From contig JACQZW010000034.1 in assembly GCA_016213675.1 (NCBI GenBank), positions 143,403-207,402 on the forward strand: 64,000 bases of DNA, written 5' to 3'. Positions within the stretch are counted from its first letter, which is position 1. Every line of letters starts with the position of its first letter. Below the pieces are notes generated by a model. That model did no database searches. It saw only the letters and a list, made by a program, of their open reading frames with translations, and was not told the origin of the DNA. Positions 4,859 through 52,864 of this stretch are shown in pieces. A program made the translations under genes and the position numbers. Origin of the DNA: Acidobacteriota bacterium. GTDB lineage: Bacteria > Acidobacteriota > Thermoanaerobaculia > Thermoanaerobaculales > Thermoanaerobaculaceae.

Positions 4859-6334
4859 CTAGCGAGGGGGCTCGGAGCCGTCGGCGGTGCCGAGAAGGGC
4901 GAGGAGGTCGTCCCGTCGCAGCTTGCCGCGGTCGGAGACCGGCAGCTCGTCGACCAGGACGACGCGGCGCGGCAGCTTGTGCGGGGCCAGACGGTCCCGG
5001 CAGGCCGACAGGACGGCACGCACGGTGAGGTTCGCGCCGGGCTCGACCGCGACGACGGCGGCAACCAGGTCTCCGCGGTGGCGGTCGGGCAGTCCGGTCA
5101 CGACGGCGCCGGCCACCCCGGGGATCGCCTCGAGGACGCGGCGCACCTCGTCGGGATGGACCTTCTTTCCGGCGACGTTGAGGGTCTCGCCGATCCGGCC
5201 CGTCAGCGTCAGCTTACCCTCGGCATCGAACCGCCCGAGGTCGCCGGTCAGGAAGACGCCCGGGGCGAGCACGAGCTCCTCCGGCGCGGGGATGGCTGCC
5301 AGCGCCACCGCGCGCGACCGCACGCGCACCCGGCCCTCGGCGCCGTCGGGCAGGACCCTTCCTTCGGCGTCGACGAGCTCGACTTCGACGCGCGCCATCG
5401 GCGTCCCCACCGCACCGGAGGCGTGAGACGGTGCGCTCGAGCGGTCGTAGGTGATCCCTCCGCACTCGCTCGAACCGTAGAACACGTGCACCTTGCGACC
5501 CGTCGCAGCGTGGAACGCGGCCGCGTCGCGCGGGGCGAGCGGTGCGCCGGCGGCGAGGACCACGCGGAGGCGCGGAAACTCCGGCAACCCGGGGAGCGTC
5601 GCCAGCGCCCGGACCATCGCGGGGACGGCGGGGAAGTGGGCGACGTCCGAGGCGGTGAGCGTGGCGGCAAGCGCGGCCGGGAGGGCGCAGGTCGGGAACG
5701 TCTGCGGCGTGCCTGTCAGCAGGAGCGGCAGCAGGCACGACCCGAGACCGTAGGAGTGGGTGAGAGGAATGGCCGCAAGGGTGACATCCCCACCCCCGAA
5801 GCCCATCGTTCGCATGATCTGCACGCCGTCGGCGGCGAGTTGGCGGGCCGACAGGGCGATCGCCTTGGGGAGGCCCGAGGAGCCGGACGTCAACTTGAGG
5901 ACGGCCGTGCCCTCAGGCAGGGCGACCACCGGCAGGTCGCGCTGCAGGCCGAGCGCGAGCCCGTCCCCCTCCCAGACGGTCTGGCCGGCGATGCGCTCCG
6001 GCGTCGCCAGGACGGCGCCGGCGCCGATGGCCACCGCACAACGTCGGAGCTCGTCGGCCGGAGCCGAGGCGTCGACCAGCGCCACCGGCACGCCGATCCG
6101 GCGGAGCGCCAGGAACGCGCGCACGAATCGCTCGCCGTTCGGCAGCGACAGCACGACCGGGCGCGCCCCGGGCACGCGCGGCCGAAGCTCGCCGGAGAAC
6201 TCGACAGCGGCCCGGGCGAGGGCCGAGCGGGTCGCGGCCGGGCGACCGTCCGGACCGAGGAGCGCGACCGACTCACCGTCGACGCGAGCCAGGGAGAAGA
6301 AGCGCCTGACGAGTGGGCAACGGGTCTCAGGCAC
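4859..6334 (-). CDS. AMP-dependent synthetase/ligase (acyl-CoA synthetase superfamily)
   Basis: AMP-binding motif TSGSSGLPK, YGSSECGG and a C-terminal GKLRRDDL. It overlaps the upstream gene by 8 nt. Confidence 0.8.
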   Translation of the reverse strand: MPETRCPLVRRFFSLARVDGESVALLGPDGRPAATRSALARAAVEFSGELRPRVPGARPVVLSLPNGERFVRAFLALRRIGVPVALVDASAPADELRRCAVAIGAGAVLATPERIAGQTVWEGDGLALGLQRDLPVVALPEGTAVLKLTSGSSGLPKAIALSARQLAADGVQIMRTMGFGGGDVTLAAIPLTHSYGLGSCLLPLLLTGTPQTFPTCALPAALAATLTASDVAHFPAVPAMVRALATLPGLPEFPRLRVVLAAGAPLAPRDAAAFHAATGRKVHVFYGSSECGGITYDRSSAPSHASGAVGTPMARVEVELVDAEGRVLPDGAEGRVRVRSRAVALAAIPAPEELVLAPGVFLTGDLGRFDAEGKLTLTGRIGETLNVAGKKVHPDEVRRVLEAIPGVAGAVVTGLPDRHRGDLVAAVVAVEPGANLTVRAVLSACRDRLAPHKLPRRVVLVDELPVSDRGKLRRDDLLALLGTADGSEPPR

Positions 6335-7325
6335 CCCCGCCTCGCAGGCGGGCGAGCATCGCCTCGGCGGTGGACTGAACGCGCTGTTGGTAGAACTTCT
6401 GGAGCACCTCGCGGACCTCGGGCCACCTGGTCATGATGCTCTCGAGGTCCTCGTGGGAGATCTCGACGACCGTGGCGCGGTCCGACGCGACGATGGTCGC
6501 CGTGCGGGGGCGGCCGGTGAGCATTGCGACCTCCCCGAAGAACTCGCCGGGGCCGAGGGTGGCGAGCTGGAGCGGTCTGCCCGCGGTGTCGTGGGTGTGG
6601 ACGTCGACCGCCCCGTCGGCGATGAGGAACATCGCAGTGCCGGGCTCCCCCTCGCGCATGATCGTCTCGCCGGGCGCGAAGCTCAGGACCGACGTGGAGG
6701 AGAGGAGCTGGTCGAGCGCCGGCCGGGGGAACGCGGCGAAGAACCTCCCGGCGTCGCGCTCCTTCGCCGCCTGCTCGGCCGACACGGACTCGAACGGCTC
6801 CGCCGGGGGCACCGCGGCGACGGCCGGGGCTGCGACCGGCGGCGCCGGCGCCTCGTCCTCGTCGACGACCACGACGTCCTCATCCTCGGCCACTGGCGGG
6901 TGGGCGAACTGCGCGGCGGGCGCGGGTGCCGTCTTGTCGGCACCGCCAGCCGGAACCGCGGCGCGCTCGAGTCGTTCGCGGGAGGCCTTCTCGACCTCCT
7001 GCTGGGCGGTGATCAGGTCGGCAAGCTCGTCGGTGACTTCCTTGCGCGCCGGGTCCAGACGCAGGATCTTGTTGGTCACCGCGATCGCCCGGGCGTAGAA
7101 GCCCTCTTTGGCGTAGTGCTGCGCGAGCTGCCGATAGACGTAGATCGCCTGCTCCCGGTCGCCGGCGAGCCCGAGGATCTCGGCCTGCCGCAGGAGGAGG
7201 TTGAAGCTCTCCGGCCGGCGCTTGATCTCGTCCGTGATCGCTTCTAAGGCGAGCCCGTACTCACGACGGACCAGGTACTGGTCGAGCTGGTCGAAACGTG
7301 GTTTCGGTTTGAACATCATTGCCAC
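6327..7325 (-). CDS. TPR-like N-terminal domain fused to a cyclic-nucleotide-binding (cNMP) domain
   Basis: N-terminal helical repeats (YGLALEAITDEIKRRPESFNLLLRQAEILGLAGDREQAIYVYRQLAQHYAKEGFYARAIAV), an Ala/Pro/Glu-rich acidic linker and a C-terminal cNMP-binding signature (FLIADGAVDV...GPGEFFGEVAMLTGRPRTATIVA). Confidence 0.7.
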   Translation of the reverse strand: MAMMFKPKPRFDQLDQYLVRREYGLALEAITDEIKRRPESFNLLLRQAEILGLAGDREQAIYVYRQLAQHYAKEGFYARAIAVTNKILRLDPARKEVTDELADLITAQQEVEKASRERLERAAVPAGGADKTAPAPAAQFAHPPVAEDEDVVVVDEDEAPAPPVAAPAVAAVPPAEPFESVSAEQAAKERDAGRFFAAFPRPALDQLLSSTSVLSFAPGETIMREGEPGTAMFLIADGAVDVHTHDTAGRPLQLATLGPGEFFGEVAMLTGRPRTATIVASDRATVVEISHEDLESIMTRWPEVREVLQKFYQQRVQSTAEAMLARLRGGGA

Positions 7326-8653
7326 CCCAGTCGGTCCGCGACGGCCCGAGCGGCCGCGCGCGCCTCGCGACGGACTGCAGCCGCATCGGCCGAGACGAGC
7401 TCGCCGTCACGCACGACGACACGACCGTCGACGATCACGTGGCGGACGCTCGCGACCCCACCACCGTACACCACCATGGCCGCCGGGTCACCGCCCGGTT
7501 CCATCGCCCAGGTGTCGGCGCGGAGCACCACGACGTCGGCTCGACGACCTGGCTGGAGCGAGCCGATCTCGTCGCCCAGTCCGATCGCTGCTGCGCCTCG
7601 GCAGGTCGCGAGCTCGAGCACTGTCCACGGGTCGAGGGCGCACGCGCCGTAGCGGAGGTTGTGCAGGGTTCCGGCCAGCGCCATCTCGTGAAACACCGAG
7701 AGGCGGTTGTTGCAGGGCGGACCGTCGGCCCCGAGCCCGATCCGGGCACCTGCGGCCAGCAGTCGCGGGACGTCGGCGATCCCGGACGCAAGCTTGAGGT
7801 TCGCTCCCGGGCAGTGGGCAACTCCAGTGGCATGCGCGGCGAGGAGCCCGATTTCGTGGTCCTCGAGATGCACGCAGTGGGCAAGCACCGTGTCGCTGCC
7901 GCCGATACCCAAATCGGCCAGAAACTCGACGTTACCCATCCCGCTGACCTCGCGCACGAGCGCGGTCTCGACCGGGTTCTCGCTCGCGTGGGTGTGAAGC
8001 AGGTAGCCGTGCCGGCGGGCCAGGCTCACTGCACCGGCCATCAGCTCGCGGGTGCAGGACAGGACGAAACGGGGCGCGACGGCGTAGCGCAGGCGCCCGG
8101 CGGCTGCGCCGTGCCAGCGGGCGCCGAGCCGTTCTGCCTCGGCCAAGGACTCGTCGGTATCCTCGAGAAGCCCCGGCGGCACGCCTTCGCCGACGTCCAT
8201 GTGGCACTTTCCGGACGCGAACCGGATGCCCAGCTCGTCGGCCGCCGCGAAGATCCCATCCTGATCGTGAGTCGTTCCCATGTCGAGGGCGGTCGTGGTG
8301 CCCCCGGCGAGCAGCTCGGCGATGCCCAGACGTGCGGCTGCGCCGACCTCGCCGCGCGAGAGAGCGGCCTCGTACGGCCAGATGCGCTCCCGCAGCCAGG
8401 GCAGTAGGGCCAGCCCCTCCGCCCGGTTGCGGACCAGGCTCTGGACGACGTGCACGTGGGCCTGAACGAAGCCGGGAAGGACCAGCGCATCCGTCGCGTC
8501 GACGATCTCGGCGCCCGCGGGAGCCGGGATGGTCGCCGCGACCTCGGCCACCCTGCCGTCCGCGAGCCGGACATCCGCGGTGGCCCATCGGCGCGTGCCG
8601 TCGAGCGGTACCACCGTCCCACCGCGAACGACAACCGTCCCCTGACTCGTCAT
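7316..8653 (-). CDS. Amidohydrolase-family metal-dependent deaminase/chlorohydrolase (MtaD/guanine deaminase/SsnA-like)
   Basis: GFVQAHVHVVQS HxH metal-binding motif and HTHASE, with a TIM-barrel amidohydrolase layout. ORF-table start 8689 is trimmed to M13 (MTSQGTVVVRGGTVV). Confidence 0.75.
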   Translation of the reverse strand: MTSQGTVVVRGGTVVPLDGTRRWATADVRLADGRVAEVAATIPAPAGAEIVDATDALVLPGFVQAHVHVVQSLVRNRAEGLALLPWLRERIWPYEAALSRGEVGAAARLGIAELLAGGTTTALDMGTTHDQDGIFAAADELGIRFASGKCHMDVGEGVPPGLLEDTDESLAEAERLGARWHGAAAGRLRYAVAPRFVLSCTRELMAGAVSLARRHGYLLHTHASENPVETALVREVSGMGNVEFLADLGIGGSDTVLAHCVHLEDHEIGLLAAHATGVAHCPGANLKLASGIADVPRLLAAGARIGLGADGPPCNNRLSVFHEMALAGTLHNLRYGACALDPWTVLELATCRGAAAIGLGDEIGSLQPGRRADVVVLRADTWAMEPGGDPAAMVVYGGGVASVRHVIVDGRVVVRDGELVSADAAAVRREARAAARAVADRLGWQ

Positions 8654-11917: not shown

Positions 11918-13192
11918 GTGACGCCGGTGCAGAAGGCTGATCGGGTCTTCGGACTGCTCGCTGCCGCGGTGGTGGCGCTGAGCGGCTGGGTCGGCGGCCG
12001 GCCCGTCGAAGGCGAGCTTCCGCCGCGCGCCAGAGTCGTCGTGCGTCCCTTGGAGCTCCCAGGATCGTTGCGTCGCGCGGTTCTGGGTAGGGGCGACACC
12101 CTGGGCGACGTCCTCGATCGCCTCGGCGTCCCCTCCGACCAAATTCCGGCATGGGCGGCGGCAACGCAACGCCACCTCGATGTCCGCTCGCTCCCGGTCG
12201 GCCTGGTGGCCGAAGCCGTCCTCGACTATCACGGCACCCTGACGAGCGTCCGCCTCACGCCTGATTGGCGGGCGACAGTTGTTCTGGAACCCGGTGACGC
12301 GGGTGTGCAGGCTCGTCGCGAGACGCGCCCCGTCGATCGGGAGATGGCCGTGGTGCGCGGCTCGGTGACGTCCAGCCTGTTCGGGGCGGTGGACGCCGCG
12401 GGCGAGGACGAGGCGCTCGCGATTCAGCTCGCCGAGCTGTTCCAGTGGGACATCGACTTCCACCGCGAGGTGCAGCCGGGCGACACGTTCGCTCTGCTGG
12501 TGGAACGGGTCCGCAGCGAGGGACGGATCGTGGCGTACGGTCCGATCGTCGGGGCGGAGTACATCAACAACGGAAAGCGCTTCGTGTCGGTGCGTTATGC
12601 GTCTGCCGTAAGCCCGCCCGGATACTACGATCTCAAGGGCCGACCCTTGAAGAAGGCGTTCCTCAGGTCGCCCCTGCGGTTCAGCCGGGTGACCTCGCGT
12701 TTCTCCATGAACCGCATGCACCCCGTCCTGGGCCGACGGTTGCCGCACTACGGGGTCGACTACGGTGCCCCGGCAGGTACGCCGGTCATGGCCACCGCCG
12801 ACGGGACGGTGAGCTTCACCGGCCGCAAGGGCGGGGGGGGCAACACCGTCGAGATCCGGCACGCAGGTGGATACGTGACCGCGTACCTGCACCTGTCGCG
12901 GTTCGCAGTCAGGCCAGGCACGCGGGTCGAGCAGGGCCGGGTCATCGGATATGTCGGGTCGACCGGCCTGTCGACAGGCCCTCACCTGGACTACCGCGTC
13001 ACCCAGGGTGGACGCTACGTCAACCCGCTCATGGTCGGCAAGGAGCCTTCTCCTCCGCTCCCGCCGTCGGCGCTCCCCGCGTTCGCCCGCTGGGCCGAGC
13101 GGGTCCTCCCGATGCTCCTCACACCGGGCAGGCCCACGGCCGAGGCAGAGGCGAGCCTCAGGGCGGGAAGCCCGGTCCGATTCGACACCTGA
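11918..13192 (+). CDS. M23-family metallopeptidase with an N-terminal OapA/LysM-like domain
   Basis: [22 protein letters not shown] ... [18 protein letters not shown] (the HxxxD/HxH LytM motifs), with an N-terminal TM/signal segment. The 836-aa antisense ORF 11048-13558 is rejected. Confidence 0.85.
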
Positions 13193-45847: not shown

Positions 45848-47272
45848 ATGAGGAGAGCGGCACCGGTCTGGTTGGTCGCGATCATGGTGGCCACGGCGGC
45901 GGGCGCCAACTTCTGCGCCCGCGACAACGTGCCTTCGGCCACCTTGCTCTTCCCGTTCATCGCCGTCGACCTGGACGTCGCCGGGGTGCCCGACTCGACC
46001 GGCGAGACCACCATCTCGCGGGTCACCAACGCGTCGCACCAGGCCGTCGTCGTCCACGTCACGGTGTGGGACGTCGAGGGGACGCCGCACGCGGTCTTCA
46101 ACGAGATCCTGTCCGGCTACGACGTCCTGCAGATCAACTGGCGCGACTTTCTGAACGGCCGTTTCGACTACTTCGACACGGCGCACACCGACTTCACCGC
46201 CACTCTGCCCTGGACACTCGACCCATTCGAGTGGGGCCCGGACGGCCGAGACGATACCTCCCAGTCAGGCTCCGACCCCTACGGGGCAGGCGAGCCGCGG
46301 AGCACGGTCACGGCGTCGCAGTGTCCGATGGGGCCGCCGTACGGCAACCGCTCCGAGCTCGCTCCGGTCCTGCGCAGCCTGTTCGCGGGATCGCTGGCGG
46401 CCCGCGAGCACGGCGGTTGTGGGGGCCTCTACAGCCTGCGATCGACTCGCCTTGGGTTGTGGGAGTCGGCGCGGACGACCCCGCTGGTGTTCTACGCGAC
46501 GGTCGATGTGGTCGCGGGCTGTACCGACCTGTTCCCGAGTCAAGCCGCCTACTTCGCTGGCGTCGCGCGGAACGACAACGTGCTGTTCGGCGAGGTCATC
46601 TACCTCGACGCTCAGAGCGGGTACTCGGAGATGATGCCCGCGGTGCACATCGAGGCGGCCAGCGGGGCGACCGGCGGTGCTTCGGTCACCGGCTTCTACG
46701 AGGAGCGGACGGCCGGGACCGAGACCTACCGGGAGCCCCTCGCGACTGCGCTGGCGTTCTCCTACGCCGACGACACCGCTGCCGGCATCACTTCCGAGGC
46801 GATCGTGTGGAAGAACCACTCCGAGTTCGCCGGGGAGCCGGACCCAGTGACCGGGGCCCAGGCGATCTGCGATCTCGGGTCTTACGTCTACTACGCCTGG
46901 GACATGGATGAACGCTCTCTGGCAACGAGGGACCTCATATGCGACCCAGGCCCCTGCATCCTCTACGACCCGAACCAGCTCCCGTTCATCACCCAGCGCG
47001 TCCCGTTGGTGAGCAACTACTTCGACCTGCCCGGCGCCTACGGCTGGATGCTCCTGGTCTTTCCCCCGTCGTACGACCAGCCGTTCGCCGATCGCACCCC
47101 GGAGCCGTACGGCTACCTCACCCACCCGACGATGGGCTGGGCCGCGCTGCGCTTCGAGTGGGGCGGGTACTCGTGCGGCAGCGATGCCATCACCATGTCC
47201 AACGCGCTGTGCTTCCCGACCCAGGTGATGCCGAACCTCGGGACCAACGACGGCACTGCGCCGATCCGCTGA
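45848..47272 (+). CDS. Secreted Cys-containing protein of unknown function, paralog A (474 aa)
   Basis: Signal peptide (WLVAIMVATAAGANFCA); no recognisable domain. About 75-80% identical to the downstream paralog, with near-identical termini. Confidence 0.7.
   Translation: MRRAAPVWLVAIMVATAAGANFCARDNVPSATLLFPFIAVDLDVAGVPDSTGETTISRVTNASHQAVVVHVTVWDVEGTPHAVFNEILSGYDVLQINWRDFLNGRFDYFDTAHTDFTATLPWTLDPFEWGPDGRDDTSQSGSDPYGAGEPRSTVTASQCPMGPPYGNRSELAPVLRSLFAGSLAAREHGGCGGLYSLRSTRLGLWESARTTPLVFYATVDVVAGCTDLFPSQAAYFAGVARNDNVLFGEVIYLDAQSGYSEMMPAVHIEAASGATGGASVTGFYEERTAGTETYREPLATALAFSYADDTAAGITSEAIVWKNHSEFAGEPDPVTGAQAICDLGSYVYYAWDMDERSLATRDLICDPGPCILYDPNQLPFITQRVPLVSNYFDLPGAYGWMLLVFPPSYDQPFADRTPEPYGYLTHPTMGWAALRFEWGGYSCGSDAITMSNALCFPTQVMPNLGTNDGTAPIR
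45905..46205 (+). repeat. Direct repeat / gene-conversion tract (5' parts of paralogs A and B, about 95% nt identity; copy at about 47488-47788)
   Basis: ggcgccaacttctgcgcccgcgacaacgtgccttcggccac...gtcttcaacgagatcctgtc occurs almost verbatim in both genes. A second near-identical tract covers the last ~290 nt of each gene (about 46980-47272 and 48560-48852). Coordinates are approximate. Confidence 0.7.
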
Positions 47273-47430
47273 CCCCGGCCTCGCCCTCCGAAGGGTCGCG
47301 TTCCCGACGGACGGCAGAGGTGTGAGCGCCGTCATCGCCGCCTGAGCCCCGTGTCCCGATCGGGGCAAGCGCGGGAAGCCCCTCGCCCGGGGGTGTACGA
47401 TCAGGGCACTGACATTGACAGGAGGTCGTC

Positions 47431-48852
47431 ATGGCAAGGGTCGCTTCGATCACATCGGTGGCGGTCATGGTGGCCGCCGTCGCCGGCGCCAACTTCTGCG
47501 CCCGCGACAACGTGCCTTCGGCCACGTTGCTCTTCCCGTTCATCGCCGTCGACCTGGACGTCGCCGGGGTGCCCGACTCGACCGGCGAGACCACCATCTC
47601 GCGGATCACCAACGCGTCGCGCCAGGCCGTCGTCGTCCACGTCACGGTGTGGGACGTCGAGGGAACCCCGCACGCGGTCTTCAACGAGATCCTGTCGGGC
47701 TACGACGTCCTGCAGATCAACTGGCGCGACTTCCTGAACGGGCGGTTCGACCTGTTCGACACGGCCCGGACGGACTTCACGGCGCCGTCGCCGTACACGC
47801 TCAACCCGTTCGAGTGGGGACCGGACAACCGTTGTCCTTGGGCCGACCAGGGTTGCGTTGACGCCTTCGCTGCTCCTGAAAGTCGCAGCACGGTTCCCGC
47901 TGCGAACTGCCCGGCCACACCGCCGTACGGAAACAGACCCGACCTCGCGCCTCTTCTCCGCACGCTGCTGTCCGGCTCGCTGCTGGCGCGGGACCACGGC
48001 GGCTGTTCCGAGTTGGGATACCTCCGGTCTGTCCGACTGGGACTGTGGGAGGTCGTTCGGACAACTGCGCTGACGTTCTACGCCACGGTCGACGTGGTCG
48101 CGGGTTGCACCGAGCTGTTCCCGTCCGAGGCCGGCTACTTCGAGGGCGTCGCGCGCAACGACAACGTGCTGTTCGGCGAGGTGATCTACCTCGACGCGCG
48201 GCGCAACTTCTCGGAGATGATGCCGGCGGTGCACGTCGAGGCGGCGGGTGGGGCAGGCGGCGGCCCTTCTGTGACCGGGTTCTACGAGGAGCGGACCGGC
48301 GGGGTCGAGACGTACCGCGAGCCCCTCGCCACGGCATTCGGGTTCTCCTACGCCAACGACACGGCCGCGGGCATCACCTCCGAGGCGATCGTGTGGAAGA
48401 ACCGCGCCGAGTTCGCCGGCGAGCCAGATCCGATCACCGGGGCCCAGCCGATCTGCGACCTCGGGTCGTACGTCTACTACGCCTGGGACATGGACGAGCG
48501 GTCGCTCGCCTCGCGCGTTCCGATTTCCGAGCCGTTCAACCCGACCGACCCGAACCAACTCCCGTTCTTCACCCAGCGGGTCCCGTTGATCAACAACTAC
48601 TTCGACCTCCCCGGCGCCTACGGCTGGATGCTGTTGGTTTTCCCGCCGTCGTACGACCGTCCATTCCCCGACCGCACTCCGGACCCCTACGGCTACCTCG
48701 ACCACCCGACGATGGGCTGGGCGGGGCTCCACTTGGAGTGGGGCGGGTACTCGTGCGGGAGCGACGCCATCACCATGTCCAACGCGCTGTGCTTCCCGAC
48801 CCAGGTCATGCCCGGCCTCGGGACGAACGACGGCACCGCGCCGATCCGCTGA
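47431..48852 (+). CDS. Secreted Cys-containing protein of unknown function, paralog B (473 aa)
   Basis: Signal peptide (VAVMVAAVAGANFCA). Tandem duplicate of 45848-47272. Confidence 0.7.
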   Translation: MARVASITSVAVMVAAVAGANFCARDNVPSATLLFPFIAVDLDVAGVPDSTGETTISRITNASRQAVVVHVTVWDVEGTPHAVFNEILSGYDVLQINWRDFLNGRFDLFDTARTDFTAPSPYTLNPFEWGPDNRCPWADQGCVDAFAAPESRSTVPAANCPATPPYGNRPDLAPLLRTLLSGSLLARDHGGCSELGYLRSVRLGLWEVVRTTALTFYATVDVVAGCTELFPSEAGYFEGVARNDNVLFGEVIYLDARRNFSEMMPAVHVEAAGGAGGGPSVTGFYEERTGGVETYREPLATAFGFSYANDTAAGITSEAIVWKNRAEFAGEPDPITGAQPICDLGSYVYYAWDMDERSLASRVPISEPFNPTDPNQLPFFTQRVPLINNYFDLPGAYGWMLLVFPPSYDRPFPDRTPDPYGYLDHPTMGWAGLHLEWGGYSCGSDAITMSNALCFPTQVMPGLGTNDGTAPIR

Positions 48853-48886
48853 CCCCGGCCTCGCCCCCGGAGGACGCTACACTCTG

Positions 48887-48909
48887 CCCGGGCGGCCCGG
48901 CCGCCCGGG
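48887..48909. terminator. GC-rich palindrome (possible terminator or attenuator hairpin) between paralog B and the M14 peptidase gene
   Basis: cccgggcggcccggccgcccggg is almost perfectly self-complementary. No U-tract; lies 10-30 nt upstream of the peptidase ATG. Confidence 0.25.
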
Positions 48910-48917
48910 GAGGCTCG

Positions 48918-51512
48918 ATGCGCGGCGCAGGACGCTGGCTGATTCCACTGGCCGTCGGCATGGTGGCGGCGGTGTCGGCCGGCGCGGCGACGGTGCCGAG
49001 CCCGACGGAGGTCCTCGGCATCGCGGTGGGACAGGACCGCATCCTCGCCACCTACGGCGAGAGCGTCCGGGTGCTCGAGGCGCTCGCTGCCGCCAGCGAC
49101 CGGGTGCGGCTCCTCGAGGTCGGACCGACCGTGGAGGGGCGGGCGATGCGGGCGGTGGCGATCTCCTCGCCCGCGAACCTGGCCCGGGTCGACGACCTCA
49201 AGCGGTCGTGGGCACGCCTCGCCGACCCGCGCGGCCTGACCGACGTCGAGCGCGACGCGATCCTCGTCGCCACGCCGGCGTGTGCCCTGATCACCGCCGG
49301 GATCCACGGCAACGAGGTGGCGGGCCCGCAGGCGACGCTGCTCTTCGCCCACCGGCTGGCCGCCGCACCGCCCGGCAGCGACGCGGCGTCCTGGCTCGAG
49401 CGGACCGTGGTGCTGATCGTGCCGTCGCTCAACCCGGACGGCCAGGACGCCGTCGTCGGCTGGTACCGCAGACAGGTCGGCACCCCGTACGAGGGGTCGA
49501 ACCTGCCGGGGCTCTACCACCGCTACGCCGGCCACGACAACAACCGCGACTTCGTCTTCCTGACACAGCCCGAGAGCCGCGCGCTCAACCGCTTCGTCTA
49601 CCGCGACTGGCACCCCCAGCTCTTCCTCGACCTTCACCAGATGGGCTCGACCGGGCCGCGCCAGTTCGTCCCGCCGTTCGCCGACCCGATCGCCCCCAAC
49701 GTCCACCCGCTGGTCTGGCGCGTCACCTCGCACCTCGGGACGCTGATGTCGCTGCGTCTCGAGGAGGCCGGCCGGACCGGGGTCGTGTCGGGCTGGACGT
49801 TCGACGGCAACTGGATCGGCGGCACCCGCAACACCGGCTGGTGGAAGAACACCTTCGGCGTGCTCACCGAGACCGCCGGCGCGGCGCTCGCCACGCCGAT
49901 CGAGGTGGACGAGGGGGAGCTGCGAGCCGGCGGCAAGGGACTCGTCGACTACCGCCAGCAGGTCAATTTCCCCAACCCGTGGCCGGGCGGGTCGTGGGGG
50001 CTCGTCGAGGCCGTCGCGTACCAGCTCGACGTGATGTCCGCGTTCGTCGAGTTCGCCGCGACGCAGCGACGCGACCTGCTCCGCGACGTCAGCACGATGG
50101 CCGCCGGGGCGGTCGCACAGGGGACGCAGGCGGCGCCGTGGGCGTACCTGGTGCCGCCGGGCGACGACCCAGGGCGGAGGCGGCGCTTGGTCGACCTGTT
50201 GCTCGAGGCGGGCGTCGAGGGGTTCATCGCCCCCGAGGGGGTGAGCGCCGACGGGCTGACCTACCCGCCGGGCACGGCGGTGTTCCCCACCGCGCAGCCG
50301 CTCCGCCAGTACCTGCTCGAGGTGCTGGAGCGGCAACGCTACCCCGAGGTGGCGCCGGCGCCCGACGCCGACATCCTCCTCCCCTACGACGTCACCGCCT
50401 GGTCGATGCCGCTGGCGCTGGGGGTGAAGGTGTCGCGGGCCGAGGGCGGCCCGCCGGCCGGCAGGCTGGTGCCGCTGCGCGCCGGCGAGCTCGCCGGCGG
50501 CCGGGTCACGGCTGACGGGGCGTGGGCCGTGGTCCCGGCCGGGCAGCTCGGCGGCTTCGGGGCCGCCAACCGGGTGCTGGCCGCAAAAGGCAGGGCGTGG
50601 CGCCTGAGCGCCGGGACCGAGATCGCCGGGCGCCGGGTCGGCGCGGGCTCCTTCGTCCTCGAGGGTCTCGCGCGCGCCGAGCTCGAGGCGATCGCCGCGG
50701 ACGCCGGCGTCGACATCGCACAGGTCGGGGAACGTCCGTCCGCCGCGGTCGCGCTGAGGCCGGTGACCGTCGGTGTCTACCATCCGAATTGGGGGTCGGA
50801 GGACGCCGGCTGGCTGCGCTTCGTCCTCGAGCAGGCCGGCTTCCCGGTCGAGGTCGTCGACGGCGCGATGCTGTCCAGGGGGCTGCCGTCACGCGTCCGT
50901 GTCCTGGTCCTGCCGCCGATCGACGGGAAGCGGCTGGTCGACGGCCCCCAGCGCGGCGCGGCCGTCCAGCCGCCGCCCGAGTACCGTAAGGGGATCGGCA
51001 AGGAGGGCGTCGAGGAGGTGAAGCGGTTCTTCGCCGACGGCGGCACGGTGCTCGCGTTCGGCGGGAGCGCCGAGTGGCTCGCCGAGGCGCTGGAGCTGCC
51101 GGTTGTCAACGTGCTCAAGGGCGTCAAGCGCGACGAGTTCTTCTGCCCCGGGGCGCAGGTCCAGCTCGCCGTGGAGACGGACACGGCGCTCGGGTGGGGG
51201 ACGACGCCGGCGCCCGCAGCGATGGTCGACGACGGCTTCGCGTTCCAGACCCGGCCGACCGGCGGGGACGAGGCGCGGGTCGTCGCGGCGCGCTTCCCCG
51301 ACGGGCCTCTGCTGCTCTCCGGATTCATCCGTGGCGAGGAGAAGCTGCGACGGCGCGCGGCCGTGGTCGAGCTGCGGCGCGGCGCCAGCCGAGCCGTCCT
51401 CTACGCCTTCGCGCCCTACTTCCGCGGTCAGACCCAGGCGACGTTCCCGCTGCTGTTCAACGCCGTGCTCGAGGAGATGGCCGAGCCGTCGCCGGTCGGG
51501 TCGAAGCGATGA
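48918..51512 (+). CDS. Secreted M14-family zinc carboxypeptidase with large C-terminal extension
   Basis: Signal peptide (WLIPLAVGMVAAVSAGAA), then Zn-binding motifs (HGNE, NPDG, FLDLHQMGS). The ATG at 48918 is chosen from the 1155-aa ORF-table frame that starts inside paralog B. Confidence 0.75.
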   Translation: MRGAGRWLIPLAVGMVAAVSAGAATVPSPTEVLGIAVGQDRILATYGESVRVLEALAAASDRVRLLEVGPTVEGRAMRAVAISSPANLARVDDLKRSWARLADPRGLTDVERDAILVATPACALITAGIHGNEVAGPQATLLFAHRLAAAPPGSDAASWLERTVVLIVPSLNPDGQDAVVGWYRRQVGTPYEGSNLPGLYHRYAGHDNNRDFVFLTQPESRALNRFVYRDWHPQLFLDLHQMGSTGPRQFVPPFADPIAPNVHPLVWRVTSHLGTLMSLRLEEAGRTGVVSGWTFDGNWIGGTRNTGWWKNTFGVLTETAGAALATPIEVDEGELRAGGKGLVDYRQQVNFPNPWPGGSWGLVEAVAYQLDVMSAFVEFAATQRRDLLRDVSTMAAGAVAQGTQAAPWAYLVPPGDDPGRRRRLVDLLLEAGVEGFIAPEGVSADGLTYPPGTAVFPTAQPLRQYLLEVLERQRYPEVAPAPDADILLPYDVTAWSMPLALGVKVSRAEGGPPAGRLVPLRAGELAGGRVTADGAWAVVPAGQLGGFGAANRVLAAKGRAWRLSAGTEIAGRRVGAGSFVLEGLARAELEAIAADAGVDIAQVGERPSAAVALRPVTVGVYHPNWGSEDAGWLRFVLEQAGFPVEVVDGAMLSRGLPSRVRVLVLPPIDGKRLVDGPQRGAAVQPPPEYRKGIGKEGVEEVKRFFADGGTVLAFGGSAEWLAEALELPVVNVLKGVKRDEFFCPGAQVQLAVETDTALGWGTTPAPAAMVDDGFAFQTRPTGGDEARVVAARFPDGPLLLSGFIRGEEKLRRRAAVVELRRGASRAVLYAFAPYFRGQTQATFPLLFNAVLEEMAEPSPVGSKR

Positions 51513-51931
51513 TCGAGATCGCCCCGGGGGTCGCCCTTGCCGATTGGGAGCTGAGCTTCACGACGGCACGCAGCGGCGGGCCGGGCGGACAGAACGTCAA
51601 CAAGGTGGAGACCAAGGTCACGCTGCACTTCGACGTCGCCGCTTCACCCAGCCTGTCGGGGGAGGCACGAGTCCGCATCCGCGAGAAGCTCGCCTCGCGC
51701 ATCGGCCGCGACGGCGTGCTCCGCGTCACGAGCCAGAAGCACCGCACCCAGGGCGCCAACCGCGAGGCGGCTGTCGCGCGCTTCGTCGAGCTGGTGCGTG
51801 GGGCGCTGGCCGAGGAGCTGCCGCGGGTGCCGACCCGGCCCTCGCGCGCCGCCAGGGAGCGCCGCGTCGGCGAGAAGAAGCTCCGCGCCCGCGTCAAGCA
51901 GCAGCGTCGCGCTCCGGCCGACGAGGACTAG
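51509..51931 (+). CDS. arfB: Alternative ribosome-rescue factor ArfB (peptidyl-tRNA hydrolase, GGQ protein)
   Basis: Catalytic GGQ motif (SGGPGGQNVNKVETKV) and a basic C-terminal tail (RRVGEKKLRARVKQQRRAP). Its ATG overlaps the peptidase stop (ATGA). Confidence 0.85.
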   Translation: MIEIAPGVALADWELSFTTARSGGPGGQNVNKVETKVTLHFDVAASPSLSGEARVRIREKLASRIGRDGVLRVTSQKHRTQGANREAAVARFVELVRGALAEELPRVPTRPSRAARERRVGEKKLRARVKQQRRAPADED

Positions 51932-51946: not shown

Positions 51947-52864
51947 CTACCAACTCGACGAGGAGCCCCCCCCGCCGAAGCTGCCGCCGCCGCCGGAGAA
52001 CGAGCCGCCGCCACTCGACCAGCCTCCCGAGCTCCGCCCCGCGCTGGCCGCGAACGTCGTCAGCGCCGGATGCGCCTTGAGGAAGCTCTGGCCGCCGAGC
52101 GTCTTGCCGAGCCAGAACTTGAGGAGGGGAAAGCCGAACAGCCAGGCGACGATCGGGATCCAGCCCACGGTCGGGCCGAGGAGGGCGAAGGGGAAGGCGG
52201 CGTAGAACGGCATCAGGAAGAGGTAGAGGAACCAGCTCTGGCACCCCTTGTTGATTACGGCGAGGAGGGAGAACACGCCGATCACGAGGGTGAAGATCCC
52301 CATTCCGATGAACCGCGCCGGCAGGTCGAGCTCCGGCCCGACCGACGTGCCGGGCGGGGCCTCCGCCGGGACCACGTCCTGCCCCTGGATCGTTCCGGCG
52401 ATGGCGTCGACGCCCGCCTCGATGCCGCCGGCGAAGTTGCCCGACTTGAAGTGCGGGCGGACGAGGTTGTCGAGGATCCGCTTCGTCAAGGCGTCGGTCA
52501 GCTTGGGCTCGAGGCCGTAGCCGACCTCGAGGCGCATCTTGCGGTCGTCGCGGGCGATGAGGAAGAGCACGCCGTCGTCGACGTCCTTGCGGCCGAGCTT
52601 CCACGTCTCGGCGACTCTGAGGGCGTACTCCTCGAGCACCTCGCCGTCGAGCGACGGGACGGTGAGCACGGCCACCTGGGCGCCGGTCGCCTTCTCGAGC
52701 TCGACGAGCTTGCCCTCGAGCCGGTCCTTGTCGCTCTGCTGGAGCATCCCGGCGGTGTCGTTGACGTGCCCGGCGAGGTACGGCACGTCCTTGCCGGACG
52801 CCGTCACTCCGATCGCCAGCGTGACGACCGTCAGGAGCGATGCGAAGGGTCGCGGGCCGCGCAC
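51947..52864 (-). CDS. TPM-domain (YgcG/TLP18.3/MOLO-1) phosphatase-like membrane protein
   Basis: N-terminal signal/TM, a TPM fold (VNDTAGMLQQSDKDRLEGKL...VAVLTVPSL...GVLFLIARDDRKMRLEVGYGLE), C-terminal TM helices and a Gly/Ser-rich tail (GGGSFSGGGGSFGGGGSSSSW). Confidence 0.75.
   Translation of the reverse strand: MRGPRPFASLLTVVTLAIGVTASGKDVPYLAGHVNDTAGMLQQSDKDRLEGKLVELEKATGAQVAVLTVPSLDGEVLEEYALRVAETWKLGRKDVDDGVLFLIARDDRKMRLEVGYGLEPKLTDALTKRILDNLVRPHFKSGNFAGGIEAGVDAIAGTIQGQDVVPAEAPPGTSVGPELDLPARFIGMGIFTLVIGVFSLLAVINKGCQSWFLYLFLMPFYAAFPFALLGPTVGWIPIVAWLFGFPLLKFWLGKTLGGQSFLKAHPALTTFAASAGRSSGGWSSGGGSFSGGGGSFGGGGSSSSW

Follow-up and report, generated by a model that had tools for sequence, protein, structure and literature searches.

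Two adjacent genes in a 64,000-nucleotide stretch of a Thermoanaerobaculia metagenome-assembled genome (the whole analysed stretch is called the window here) encode paralogous proteins, A and B, that belong to a large family of exported proteins. The explanation that we favour, and to which we give about an even chance, is that A and B are Sec-exported, disulfide-stabilised ligand-binding proteins with hypervariable loops that arose by duplication and partial gene conversion, ligand binding being their presumed function.

The gene pair and its conserved and variable segments

The two open reading frames agree in coordinates and length (474 and 473 aa) with a previous sequence-only reading of this DNA, and GGAGG lies 5' of A's ATG and AGGAGG 5' of B's. 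The features of the pair are as follows:

45848..47272, + strand: gene A, open reading frame for a 474 aa exported family member
45848..45907, + strand: predicted Sec signal peptide of A, residues 1-20, cleavage between AGA and NFCARD, read by eye
45908..46177, + strand: conserved N-terminal block of A, residues 21-110, a tract shared with B at 47491-47760
46178..46459, + strand: hypervariable insertion of A, residues 111-204 (B equivalent 47761-48045)
46730..47212, + strand: C-terminal β-sandwich domain of A, about residues 295-455, TM1070/ASRT-like in fold
46910..46969, + strand: second hypervariable loop of A, about residues 355-374, with C365 and C370
47261..47286, + strand: 26-nt sequence shared exactly by both gene ends (final 12 nt of coding sequence, then 14 nt of 3' flank), with its second copy at 48841-48866
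47273..47430, + strand: A-B spacer, unique, 158 nt, holding B's ribosome-binding site
47431..48852, + strand: gene B, open reading frame for a 473 aa, older and more divergent tandem paralogue
47431-47490: predicted signal peptide of B, equivalent to that of A, read by eye

The two proteins are 80% identical over their whole lengths, and this identity is unevenly spread. Both signal peptides have a basic N-terminus and a hydrophobic stretch followed by AGA-NF (the family consensus is MKK, a hydrophobic h-region and then AYA-NFCARD), and they have diverged from one another to 55% amino acid and 67% nucleotide identity. Immediately after them the near-identity reported in the sequence-only reading is present, at 96–100% of nucleotides over approximately 45914-46138 (45-nt windows) in a tract of about 270 nt; a repeat search returned 94% identity over 45874-46173. 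A 38-mer and a 26-mer quoted in that reading each occur exactly twice (at 45905 and 47488, and at 47261 and 48841, respectively) and have 0 matches in shuffles of the window. The last ~290 nt, also described as nearly identical, are in fact 88% identical over about 300 nt. The 3' flank said to follow both genes is common to them for 14 nt past the stop codon, the remaining 12 nt of the 26-mer being coding, and this repeat marks the duplication boundary. A core of about 60% amino acid identity is found at codons 111-205 (62%) and does not extend to codons 206-355, which are 80–86% identical. In the hypervariable insertion A and B have 61% nucleotide and 62% amino acid identity (dS 1.58, dN 0.37, dN/dS 0.23). 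Finally, the cysteines differ in position and not, as had been thought, in number: there are 9 in each protein, 7 positions are common, and one pair is relocated, C365/C370 being found only in A and C135/C142 only in B.

The A-B spacer has no resemblance to the region upstream of A. Intergenic hairpins, including those in this spacer, fold no better than shuffled sequences (z-scores -0.7 and -1.6), and a scan for promoters and terminators returned nothing useful and no signal for or against a shared operon.

Old duplication, segmental gene conversion

Gene A is the orthologue of P0004, a single-copy gene at a syntenic locus (L001) in a related genome, and it lies nearer to P0004 (dS 0.38) than to B (dS 0.56 overall); the genome baseline given by the flanking genes is 0.11–0.17. 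This synonymous divergence shows that the tandem duplication is old. In codons 21-110 the A-B dS is 0.126, against 0.38–1.58 in the rest of the gene. The orthologue comparison (A-C) gives a dS of 0.177 for the same codons, which is near the flanking-gene baseline; what keeps the A-B value low is therefore common ancestry in the recent past, and not constraint on synonymous sites. Informative sites are clustered as well, with maximum-run permutation tests giving p = 0.0004–0.0022 for three site patterns. Gene conversion, which the sequence-only reading had proposed for both gene ends, is well supported for this 5' block; at the 3' end the A-B dS of 0.38 is about two to three times the genome baseline, and recent conversion there finds no support.

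Conserved ends and a variable core might also have arisen with no gene conversion at all, through uneven purifying selection on an old duplicate. The pattern itself is real but for the most part characterises the clade as a whole: in all pairs of the five full-length close homologues, which come from different samples, 90–98% of residues 21-110 are identical, and the variable stretches are low-confidence, indel-rich loops, both of which would suit such selection. Against it stand the drop of the A-B dS to 0.126 between neighbouring segments with values of 0.97 (signal peptide) and 1.58 (hypervariable insertion), the near-baseline orthologue dS with its lack of any special synonymous constraint, and the runs test on informative sites (p ≤ 0.002), and we consider it improbable. 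The diversifying selection that had been suggested for the middle region finds no support in A and B, whose dN/dS is 0.14–0.36 in all estimable segments; the segment-by-segment calculation that had been proposed as a check gives values below 0.6 in all estimable segments, with a maximum of 0.58 over all pairs.

The history of the pair, which we regard as largely shown, is that after the old tandem duplication gene conversion homogenised ~270 nt at the start of the mature coding region, at about the time that the source genome and the L001 relative split, and that further short patches were exchanged between A and B. In a neighbour-joining tree B is sister to a group of A, P0002, P0003 and P0004; the two copies at the distant locus L074 pair together, and the window copies lie within one clade. 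In this tree the paralogues of two distant lineages with the pair at one locus group by genome, in keeping with gene conversion, and independent duplications could also produce this. At the L074 locus, which corresponds to that of A and B, the gene is likewise present as a tandem pair, and the syntenic L001 has a single gene whose body is mostly A-like, including the C-terminal coding part, and whose flank after the shared 26-mer is B-like. A simple chimera made by unequal crossover (A 5' half plus B 3' half) does not account for the L001 gene, given its A-like C-terminal coding part. One copy was lost in the L001 lineage; the identical 3' ends plausibly recombined with each other, and the 26-nt repeat is a possible substrate for such a deletion. 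A diversity-generating retroelement was also considered and was rejected since there is no template repeat: the 64-kb window holds no further copy of A or B or of any part of them, except for one 82-nt match with 73% identity.

The source is a metagenome-assembled genome and the copies share a nearly identical ~270-nt tract, both of which would be expected if the pair were an assembly artefact made by stitching two strain alleles together. This is very unlikely, because the copies are separated by the unique 158-nt spacer with its own ribosome-binding site and because an independent metagenome-assembled genome (L074) has the same tandem arrangement at the same locus. The 19% overall difference between the copies and the arrays in several more independent assemblies (below) also argue against it.

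An unannotated family nearly confined to the Thermoanaerobaculia

As the sequence-only reading had stated, A and B contain no Pfam or NCBIfam domain, and its suggestion of an uncharacterised exported family is borne out in that the family has no Pfam, NCBIfam or PDB sequence match and is "hypothetical" in every source. A search by indexed words found 141 matches, all of them "hypothetical" and without Pfam domains, and a profile search (protein A itself matches the A1 family profile with E = 4e-190) found 1570 clusters at 50% identity with E ≤ 1e-3, of which 1202 have E ≤ 1e-10. The 66 genome loci are nearly all in metagenome-assembled genomes of the Thermoanaerobaculia, so that the family is found almost only in this class. 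PDB sequence searches returned noise only (2l3j with E 0.34 for A alone, 2oh1 with E 1.9 for the family profile), and we dismissed as noise an NCBIfam catechol dioxygenase match (E 0.15, 11 bits against a cut-off of 392) and weak Pfam matches in single members (Slr4, Dockerin, Peptidase_Mx1). No mention of the family was found in the literature on ASRAH proteins and on secreted hypothetical proteins of the Thermoanaerobaculia.

The survey of copy number that had been suggested along with the family search shows tandem arrays at further loci, namely L005 (3 copies), L020 (4 copies), L007, L036, L055 and L058. The L005 copies are 95–100% identical outside their loop patches, and within the patches nonsynonymous differences stand to synonymous ones (Nd/Sd) in about the proportion expected under neutrality or a slightly higher one, on small counts. 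The module is also present in two-module proteins and in giant proteins with PKD, BACON and P-domains, which speaks for an extracellular setting.

C23 and C455 occur in all of 56 family sequences and C159, C191 and C225 in 53 of them. Eight acidic or histidine residues (D26, H70, D92, D100, E269, E296, D352 and E355) do not vary among sequences of 33–80% identity, nor do W321 and W400; the eight stand in motifs such as WDxDE and REP, and the conserved N-terminal block holds the invariant residues C23, D26, N61, H70, D92 and D100. The three residues before C23 are A-N-F (family consensus AYANFC) and do not fit the lipobox pattern [LVI][ASTVI][GAS]C; lipidation is not expected because this cysteine is not in a lipobox, and a lipoprotein reading was rejected on that ground.

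Predicted fold and possible relationship to the ASRAH superfamily

The predicted structure has two sandwiches of 8–9 strands each. The conserved N-terminal block forms β strands 1–5 of the first sandwich (pLDDT 94–97), and the hypervariable insertion has pLDDT values of 60–74 at residues 121-150 and 66–67 at residues 191-210, on either side of a confident helix. Many indels occur in this insertion across the family, and the profile matches of remote homologues jump over positions ~104-209. The second hypervariable loop has a pLDDT of 53 at residues 361-370, and its counterpart in B (about 48496-48546) lacks cysteines; the loop exists in two types, one in B and the L001 gene and the other in A, P0002, P0003 and P0006.

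When the C-terminal sandwich was searched alone it was found to be a β-sandwich superposable on TM1070 (1nc7), and in our reading this domain has the TM1070/ASRT ("ASRAH") fold and the N-terminal one probably has it too. The reference for this superfamily is Pfam PF07100 and the study of de Souza, Iyer & Aravind (2009, PMC2739507), in which its members were proposed to bind sugars or small molecules, its secreted members were described as dyads or tetrads, and an almost invariant Asn, placed where strand 2 ends and a tight turn follows, was given as its hallmark. In our family each half has a counterpart of this residue: N61 ends the strand at residues 53-61 and is invariant (56/56), and N323, directly after the strand at residues 314-322, is present in 41 of the 56 sequences (the others have S or D). 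At the sequence level PF07100 has no match to A or B at E ≤ 1 and none at E ≤ 0.1 in the 56 members. An hhalign comparison of 120 ASRT homologues with the family gave a best local E of 0.02–0.04 and a probability below 3%, the ASRT profile being shallow (77–100% identical); this weak alignment puts ASRT N38 on N61. The conserved Trp at the start of ASRAH strand 1 is absent (the first strands here are ATLLFPF and ALAFSYA), as are the H/C ligand residues of ASRAH proteins, and hhalign comparisons of the N-terminal with the C-terminal half, and of quarter-domains with one another, revealed no internal repeat.

The ASRT/TM1070 proteins are small cytoplasmic tetramers, whereas A and B are about four times larger, have a signal peptide, conserved disulfides and a variable insertion of about 100 residues within the first sandwich, and show no significant sequence or profile similarity to them. 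A second comparison is with secreted actinobacterial proteins with two ASRAH domains, a third family for which carbohydrate binding at the cell surface was proposed (PMC2739507); as described there, they have in common with A and B export, two sandwiches, conserved N- and C-terminal extensions and a conserved Cys just after the signal peptide, and they belong to another phylum.

Genome context and possible functions

Downstream of B lie two genes that had been recognised in the sequence-only reading, and both identifications are confirmed:

48918..51512, + strand: exported M14 zinc carboxypeptidase-domain protein, 864 aa, 65 nt 3' of B (Pfam PF00246)
51509..51931, + strand: arfB-like RF-1-domain protein, 140 aa, overlapping the M14 stop by 4 nt (PF00472)

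The former matches PF00246 over residues 52-221 with E = 1.1e-17 (65 bits against a gathering cut-off of 21.6), and the latter matches PF00472 with E = 4e-18 (65.8 bits) and contains GPGGQ (the GGQ motif). In other members of the family the context is different: at about 50 of 70 loci the family gene lies between a gene for an FG-GAP protein and one for a protein of ~1300–2000 aa, usually with PKD domains, and the flanks of this group encode a KpsM/Wzm-like permease and a Wzt/TagH-like ATPase (the latter with a Wzt_C domain in L077). The polysaccharide-exporter context thus belongs to other family members, and the window pair adjoins a peptidase. The giant PKD neighbours were searched for the family module with hmmsearch --max, which gave E 0.56 in L003 and no match in L005 and L006.

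In the explanation that we favour, the conserved two-sandwich framework would carry loops that vary in sequence, in length and in the Cys pairs that staple them, presumably by disulfide pairing. The proteins would bind a ligand outside the cytoplasm, most probably a glycan in a lectin-like manner, and the loops would set specificity so that paralogues give alternative specificities. Carbohydrate-binding modules (CBMs) and bacterial lectins have the same proposed working, a rigid sandwich with loop-set specificity, and a further likeness is that the module of our family recurs in large multi-domain surface proteins with PKD and BACON domains.

The invariant acidic and histidine residues would, however, be as much in place in an enzyme as in a binding site, and the family could be extracellular glycan or peptide hydrolases or lyases on a β-sandwich scaffold, with these eight residues catalytic or metal-binding and the variable loops shaping substrate access. 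The persistence of D26, H70, D92, D100, E269, E296, D352 and E355 in sequences as little as 33% identical is in keeping with this, as is the presence of adjoining secreted peptidases in two contexts independent of each other (an M14 peptidase at the window, L001 and L074 loci; an M4 peptidase and an S9 fragment in L002) and the polysaccharide-export context of other members. We think an enzymatic role unlikely.

The members could also have a structural or adhesive role in an assembly at the cell surface that includes the FG-GAP and giant PKD proteins. A and B would then be copies of a subunit that has been relocated and duplicated, and the variability of their loops would come from surface exposure (phage or predator pressure) and not from specificity. 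The order FG-GAP, family gene, giant gene between the halves of the ABC exporter, kept at those ~50 of 70 loci, speaks for this, as do the recurrent arrays with patches varying only in loops and the speed at which the family outpaces its neighbours: window and L074 family proteins are 53–55% identical, against 72% for their M14 proteins, and the family dN is 0.115, against 0.014–0.038 for most neighbours. There is, however, no lipobox, no sorting-signal family among the Pfam and NCBIfam results and no S-layer or pilin fold match; the weak Slr4 matches (2/56 members, E 0.015) are at noise level. This idea, which overlaps with ligand binding, seems to us doubtful.

Least probable of the functional alternatives is that A and B share an operon with the downstream M14 carboxypeptidase and work with it, whether by capturing its substrate, by inhibiting it or as its chaperones. 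The genes have one orientation, the gap before M14 is 65 nt, and their adjacency is kept in L001 (64 nt) and in L074 (83 nt) in spite of the other rearrangements of L074, which has lost AHSA1 and gained a transposase gene upstream and an SDF gene between M14 and arfB. The association is confined to one sub-clade (3 of ~70 loci), so inherited gene order could explain it, and no peptidase-inhibitor fold was matched.

Parallels to A and B include the tandem surface-protein families with segmental gene conversion, such as Neisseria opa/pilS and Anaplasma msp2, in which a conserved framework likewise carries variable patches, copies exchange sequence as mosaics and the paralogues of one genome group together. 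A and B differ from these in that their locus has only two copies and no silent cassettes, that there is no evidence of programmed switching, that the organism is free-living, and that the A/B dN/dS is below 1.

Implications for the family and its hosts

The findings on A and B do not overturn current understanding. They define a sizeable family, with at least 1200 clusters at 50% identity and without a Pfam or NCBIfam model, that is nearly confined to one little-studied acidobacterial class, which is common in soils and sediments. The family gains a first structural handle in its ASRT/TM1070-like sandwich, a conserved context (FG-GAP protein, giant PKD protein and Wzm/Wzt-type exporter) and a testable hypothesis of extracellular glycan or ligand binding through variable loops. 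The window pair, set beside its single-copy and distant two-copy relatives, is a clean small case of duplication, partial conversion and copy loss. A more speculative reading, to which we give a low probability, is that the Thermoanaerobaculia possess a lineage-specific repertoire of exported recognition proteins in which loops on a constant double ASRAH-like scaffold move as cassettes, through gene conversion, from one tandem paralogue to another. If this is true, cassette swapping of loops with alternative stapling disulfides would diversify the binding or recognition of glycans, neighbouring cells or phages, and a new protein family would be joined to diversification by loop exchange in free-living bacteria.

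The tandem pair and its neighbours

Genes A and B are followed by a peptidase-like gene and an arfB-like gene:

45848-47272, + strand: gene A, intact ORF of 474 aa
47431-48852, + strand: gene B, intact ORF of 473 aa
48918-51512, downstream of A and B: M14-domain protein, 864 aa
51509-51931, downstream of the M14 gene: ArfB-like protein, 140 aa, with an RF-1 domain and GGQ

A GGAGG-type ribosome-binding site precedes both A and B, and a unique 158-nt spacer sets them apart; an origin of this tandem pair as an assembly artefact is very improbable. The two proteins are 80% identical with 5 gaps (BLASTP), and nucleotide identity along the genes is very uneven: below 50% 5' of the genes, 67% in the signal-peptide codons, 96–100% over about 45914-46138 of A, 53–71% over 46180-46460, and 80–93% in the remainder, with a second dip at about 46900-46990 and 88% over the final 300 nt. 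The sequence-only reading had described near-identical gene ends around a divergent core with differing cysteines. This was largely right, but needed correcting as to the 3' end, how far the variable region reaches and how many Cys there are. Both strings that it quoted occur exactly twice each, but 12 nt of the 26-mer taken as a shared 3' flank are coding, and the sharing extends only 14 nt past the stop codon. A and B each contain nine Cys; seven occupy equivalent positions and one pair is relocated (C365/C370 in A, C135/C142 in B).

PFK and ParA-like genes (+ strand) and SDR and AHSA1 genes (- strand) lie upstream of A, and elsewhere the window carries ordinary chromosomal genes (CheA, MCP, PEPCK, aminotransferase, PhoD and others). 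The M14 stop codon and arfB start codon overlap by 4 nt both here (51509-51512) and in locus L001, a close syntenic relative (12078-12081); this coupling is not universal, since in the more distant relative L074 (7723-9473) an opposite-strand SDF transporter gene parts the two. Gene order is AHSA1, family gene, M14, arfB, TPM, TPM in the window and L001, and SDR, two family genes, M14, SDF, arfB, TPM in L074, which lacks the AHSA1 gene. The M14 gene stays beside the family genes in these orders; a functional link between its product and A/B is a possible but improbable reading.

Several other features were observed. A perfect 10-bp G+C hairpin (CCCGGGCGGC / GCCGCCCGGG) in 48853-48917 lies directly ahead of the M14 ribosome-binding site; no U-run follows it, and this interval shows no clear excess of folding strength over shuffled sequences (z = -1.6). 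An 82-nt stretch at 398-474, within a CheA-like gene on the opposite strand, is 72–73% identical to nucleotides 111–189 of A and of B, and is probably a chance GC-rich similarity. The TPM-domain gene at 51947-52864 (- strand) is 83% identical in amino acids to its L001 orthologue (dS 0.36, dN 0.10), and the genes around it are far less diverged (dS 0.11–0.22). In L074 a Y1 (IS200/IS605-type) transposase gene (182-1147) adjoins the SDR gene, directly upstream of the tandem pair. A diversity-generating retroelement at A/B was considered and rejected, as no template repeat was found in the 64-kb window.

A lineage-restricted family of predicted exported proteins

A and B, listed as HY825_08235 and HY825_08240 in an Acidobacteria MAG, match nothing in Pfam or NCBIfam, and PDB sequence searches with single sequences and with a 56-sequence profile gave no match. 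An index of 5.8 billion proteins yielded 141 relatives, all "hypothetical", none with a Pfam domain, and all from MAGs of Acidobacteriota or Thermoanaerobaculaceae. Among 1.84 billion cluster representatives, a profile search found 1570 proteins at E≤1e-3 (1202 at E≤1e-10), and a scan of species-representative genomes found 66 loci, almost all labelled Thermoanaerobaculia, Thermoanaerobaculales, Sulfomarinibacteraceae or just Acidobacteriota. The family is thus unannotated and lineage-restricted, and the earlier suggestion of an uncharacterised exported family is supported. Its predicted signal peptide ends at AYA|NFCARD across the alignment; two Cys (C23 and C455) never vary, and three more (C159, C191 and C225) hardly do. 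The invariant polar residues are D26, T55, N61, H70, D92, D100, T111, E269, E296, D352 and E355; indels concentrate, in A numbering, at about 111–205, 270–295, 356–376 and 408–425. Among remote homologues, P0172, P0195 and P0208 carry two whole modules of about 450 aa in tandem, P0176, P0223, P0194 and P0213 carry the module inside giants of 1200–1900 aa with PKD, BACON or proprotein-convertase P domains, and giants of 1000–1900 aa combine two modules with domains of these kinds. In six MAG loci (L057, L062, L065, L069, L070 and L072; match regions about 5900-7500) the family gene is split over 2–3 reading frames, so that these may be real pseudogenes or the product of sequencing or assembly errors left uncorrected.

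Predicted structure

An AlphaFold2 model built on the 56-sequence alignment (pLDDT 84.5, pTM 0.87) is mainly beta, with low confidence exactly in the variable stretches; hypervariable loops are carried on a conserved frame. The model has a TM1070/ASRT-like sandwich at least in the C-terminal domain; the N-terminal half, whose 8–9 predicted strands are broken by an insertion of about 100 variable residues, may share this fold. ASRT (Pfam PF07100) and TM1070 belong to the ASRAH superfamily defined by De Souza, Iyer and Aravind, who argued that its members bind small molecules or sugars and, when secreted, occur as dyads or tetrads (PMC2739507). Counterparts of the ASRAH hallmark Asn that closes strand 2 are N61 (invariant) and N323 (41 of 56 sequences); the hallmark Trp and H/C ligand residues are absent from the family. 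Profile-profile comparison with ASRT (query identical to 2ii7_A, 120 homologues gathered) was not significant (E 0.02–0.04, probability <3%), so the resemblance is structural and homology is unproven, although ASRT N38 falls on N61 in that weak alignment. A true ASRT homologue, P0377, annotated from a Thermoanaerobaculia MAG, is 77% identical to Anabaena ASRT and matches PF07100, so Thermoanaerobaculia also have the small cytoplasmic ASRT.

Gene context of the family

In about 50 of 70 non-redundant loci (for example L003 5417-16327, and likewise L005, L006, L075 and L077) the family gene lies downstream of a gene for an FG-GAP/VCBS protein of about 560 aa and upstream of one for a protein of about 1300–2000 aa, usually with PKD domains. 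Where flanks are readable, this trio is flanked by a KpsM/Wzm-like ABC-2 permease on the FG-GAP side and, beyond the giant, by a Wzt/TagH-like ATPase (bearing a Wzt_C domain in L077), and an HTH-TPR-unknown trio lies divergently upstream of the cluster. Three secreted-protein genes inside a split polysaccharide-type ABC exporter is an unusual arrangement. Four of the giant neighbours have in common a C-terminal motif, approximately YASVIDxxTGDPxFIxAxPxP:

L003 9646-15021
L075 8606-14734
L076 1684-7050
L077 10073-14047

An 817-aa protein upstream of a family gene in L007 (5490-7943) shows just the core S[VL][IV]Dxx[TN]xDP close to its end; the motif may act as a shared signal for sorting or anchoring. 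A and B belong to a sub-clade sited elsewhere than the exporter cluster, in the loci of the window, L001, L074, L002 and L007. L002 has an M4 peptidase gene upstream of its family gene and an S9 fragment downstream, and L007 has two family copies on opposite strands. All of these contexts are extracytoplasmic in flavour; none decides function.

Evolution of the pair

L001 has a single family copy, C (P0004). The flanking proteins of the window and L001 are 92–97% identical except for one TPM protein at 83%, and dS runs from 0.11 to 0.17 across the six nearest genes, with 0.22 and 0.36 in the two TPM genes. Over the whole family gene, dS is 0.56 between A and B, 0.38 between A and C and 0.54 between B and C; A-C being lowest, A is the orthologue of C, and B is a copy whose age is several times that of the divergence of the two genomes. 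In codons 21–110 all three values are near the genome baseline (A-B 0.126, A-C 0.177, B-C 0.160), while A-B dS is 0.97 in the signal peptide and 1.58 in codons 111–205. Since A and its orthologue C give no sign of special synonymous constraint there, the low A-B value indicates recent common ancestry, which makes these codons a gene-conversion tract of about 270 nt, roughly as old as the genome split. Conversion of the 5' block, as originally proposed, is therefore supported; recent conversion of the 3' end is not (A-B dS 0.38 in the 3' third). All three patterns of informative sites (A=B, A=C, B=C) cluster significantly (p 0.0004 to 0.0022): C resembles A upstream and over most of the gene; two internal patches, at the loop-1 Cys pair and at loop 2, are of the B type instead, as is the flank past the shared 26-mer. 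This mosaic fits loss of B in the L001 lineage by recombination of the identical 3' ends together with earlier patchy conversion, as we infer. Overall, the tandem duplication is old, conversion has affected a 5' tract and the pair is mosaic in structure.

A tandem pair also occupies this locus in L074, where the M14 protein is 72% identical to that of the window and the family proteins only 53–55%. The two L074 copies, 61% identical, group together in the tree, which is the classical signature of concerted evolution, although independent duplications may also account for it. Arrays elsewhere have three copies (L005/L017), four (L020) or two (L007, L008, which is the L074 locus, L036, L055 and L058). 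The L005 copies are 95–100% identical save in short patches within predicted loops, where nonsynonymous differences occur at about neutral frequency or above, with small counts.

Diversifying selection on the core had also been suggested; dN/dS is 0.14–0.58 in all estimable segments and pairs among A, B and C, and gives no evidence of it. In a comparison of six close homologues (five full-length) that come from different samples, residues 21–110 are 90–98% identical in every pair and the loops 33–83%, so the pattern of conserved ends and a variable core is mainly a family property.

Possible function

The invariant acidic and His residues make an enzymatic role a serious rival, though an unlikely one, and a structural or adhesive role is about equally doubtful. 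Three things point to ligand binding: the role proposed for ASRAH folds, the recurrence of the module in surface giants with PKD/BACON domains, and the polysaccharide-exporter setting in which most members are encoded. A and B would bind a ligand extracellularly, probably glycans, with the loops setting specificity. The A/B family is an unannotated, secreted, predicted ASRAH-like beta-sandwich family that is evolving by well-known mechanisms.
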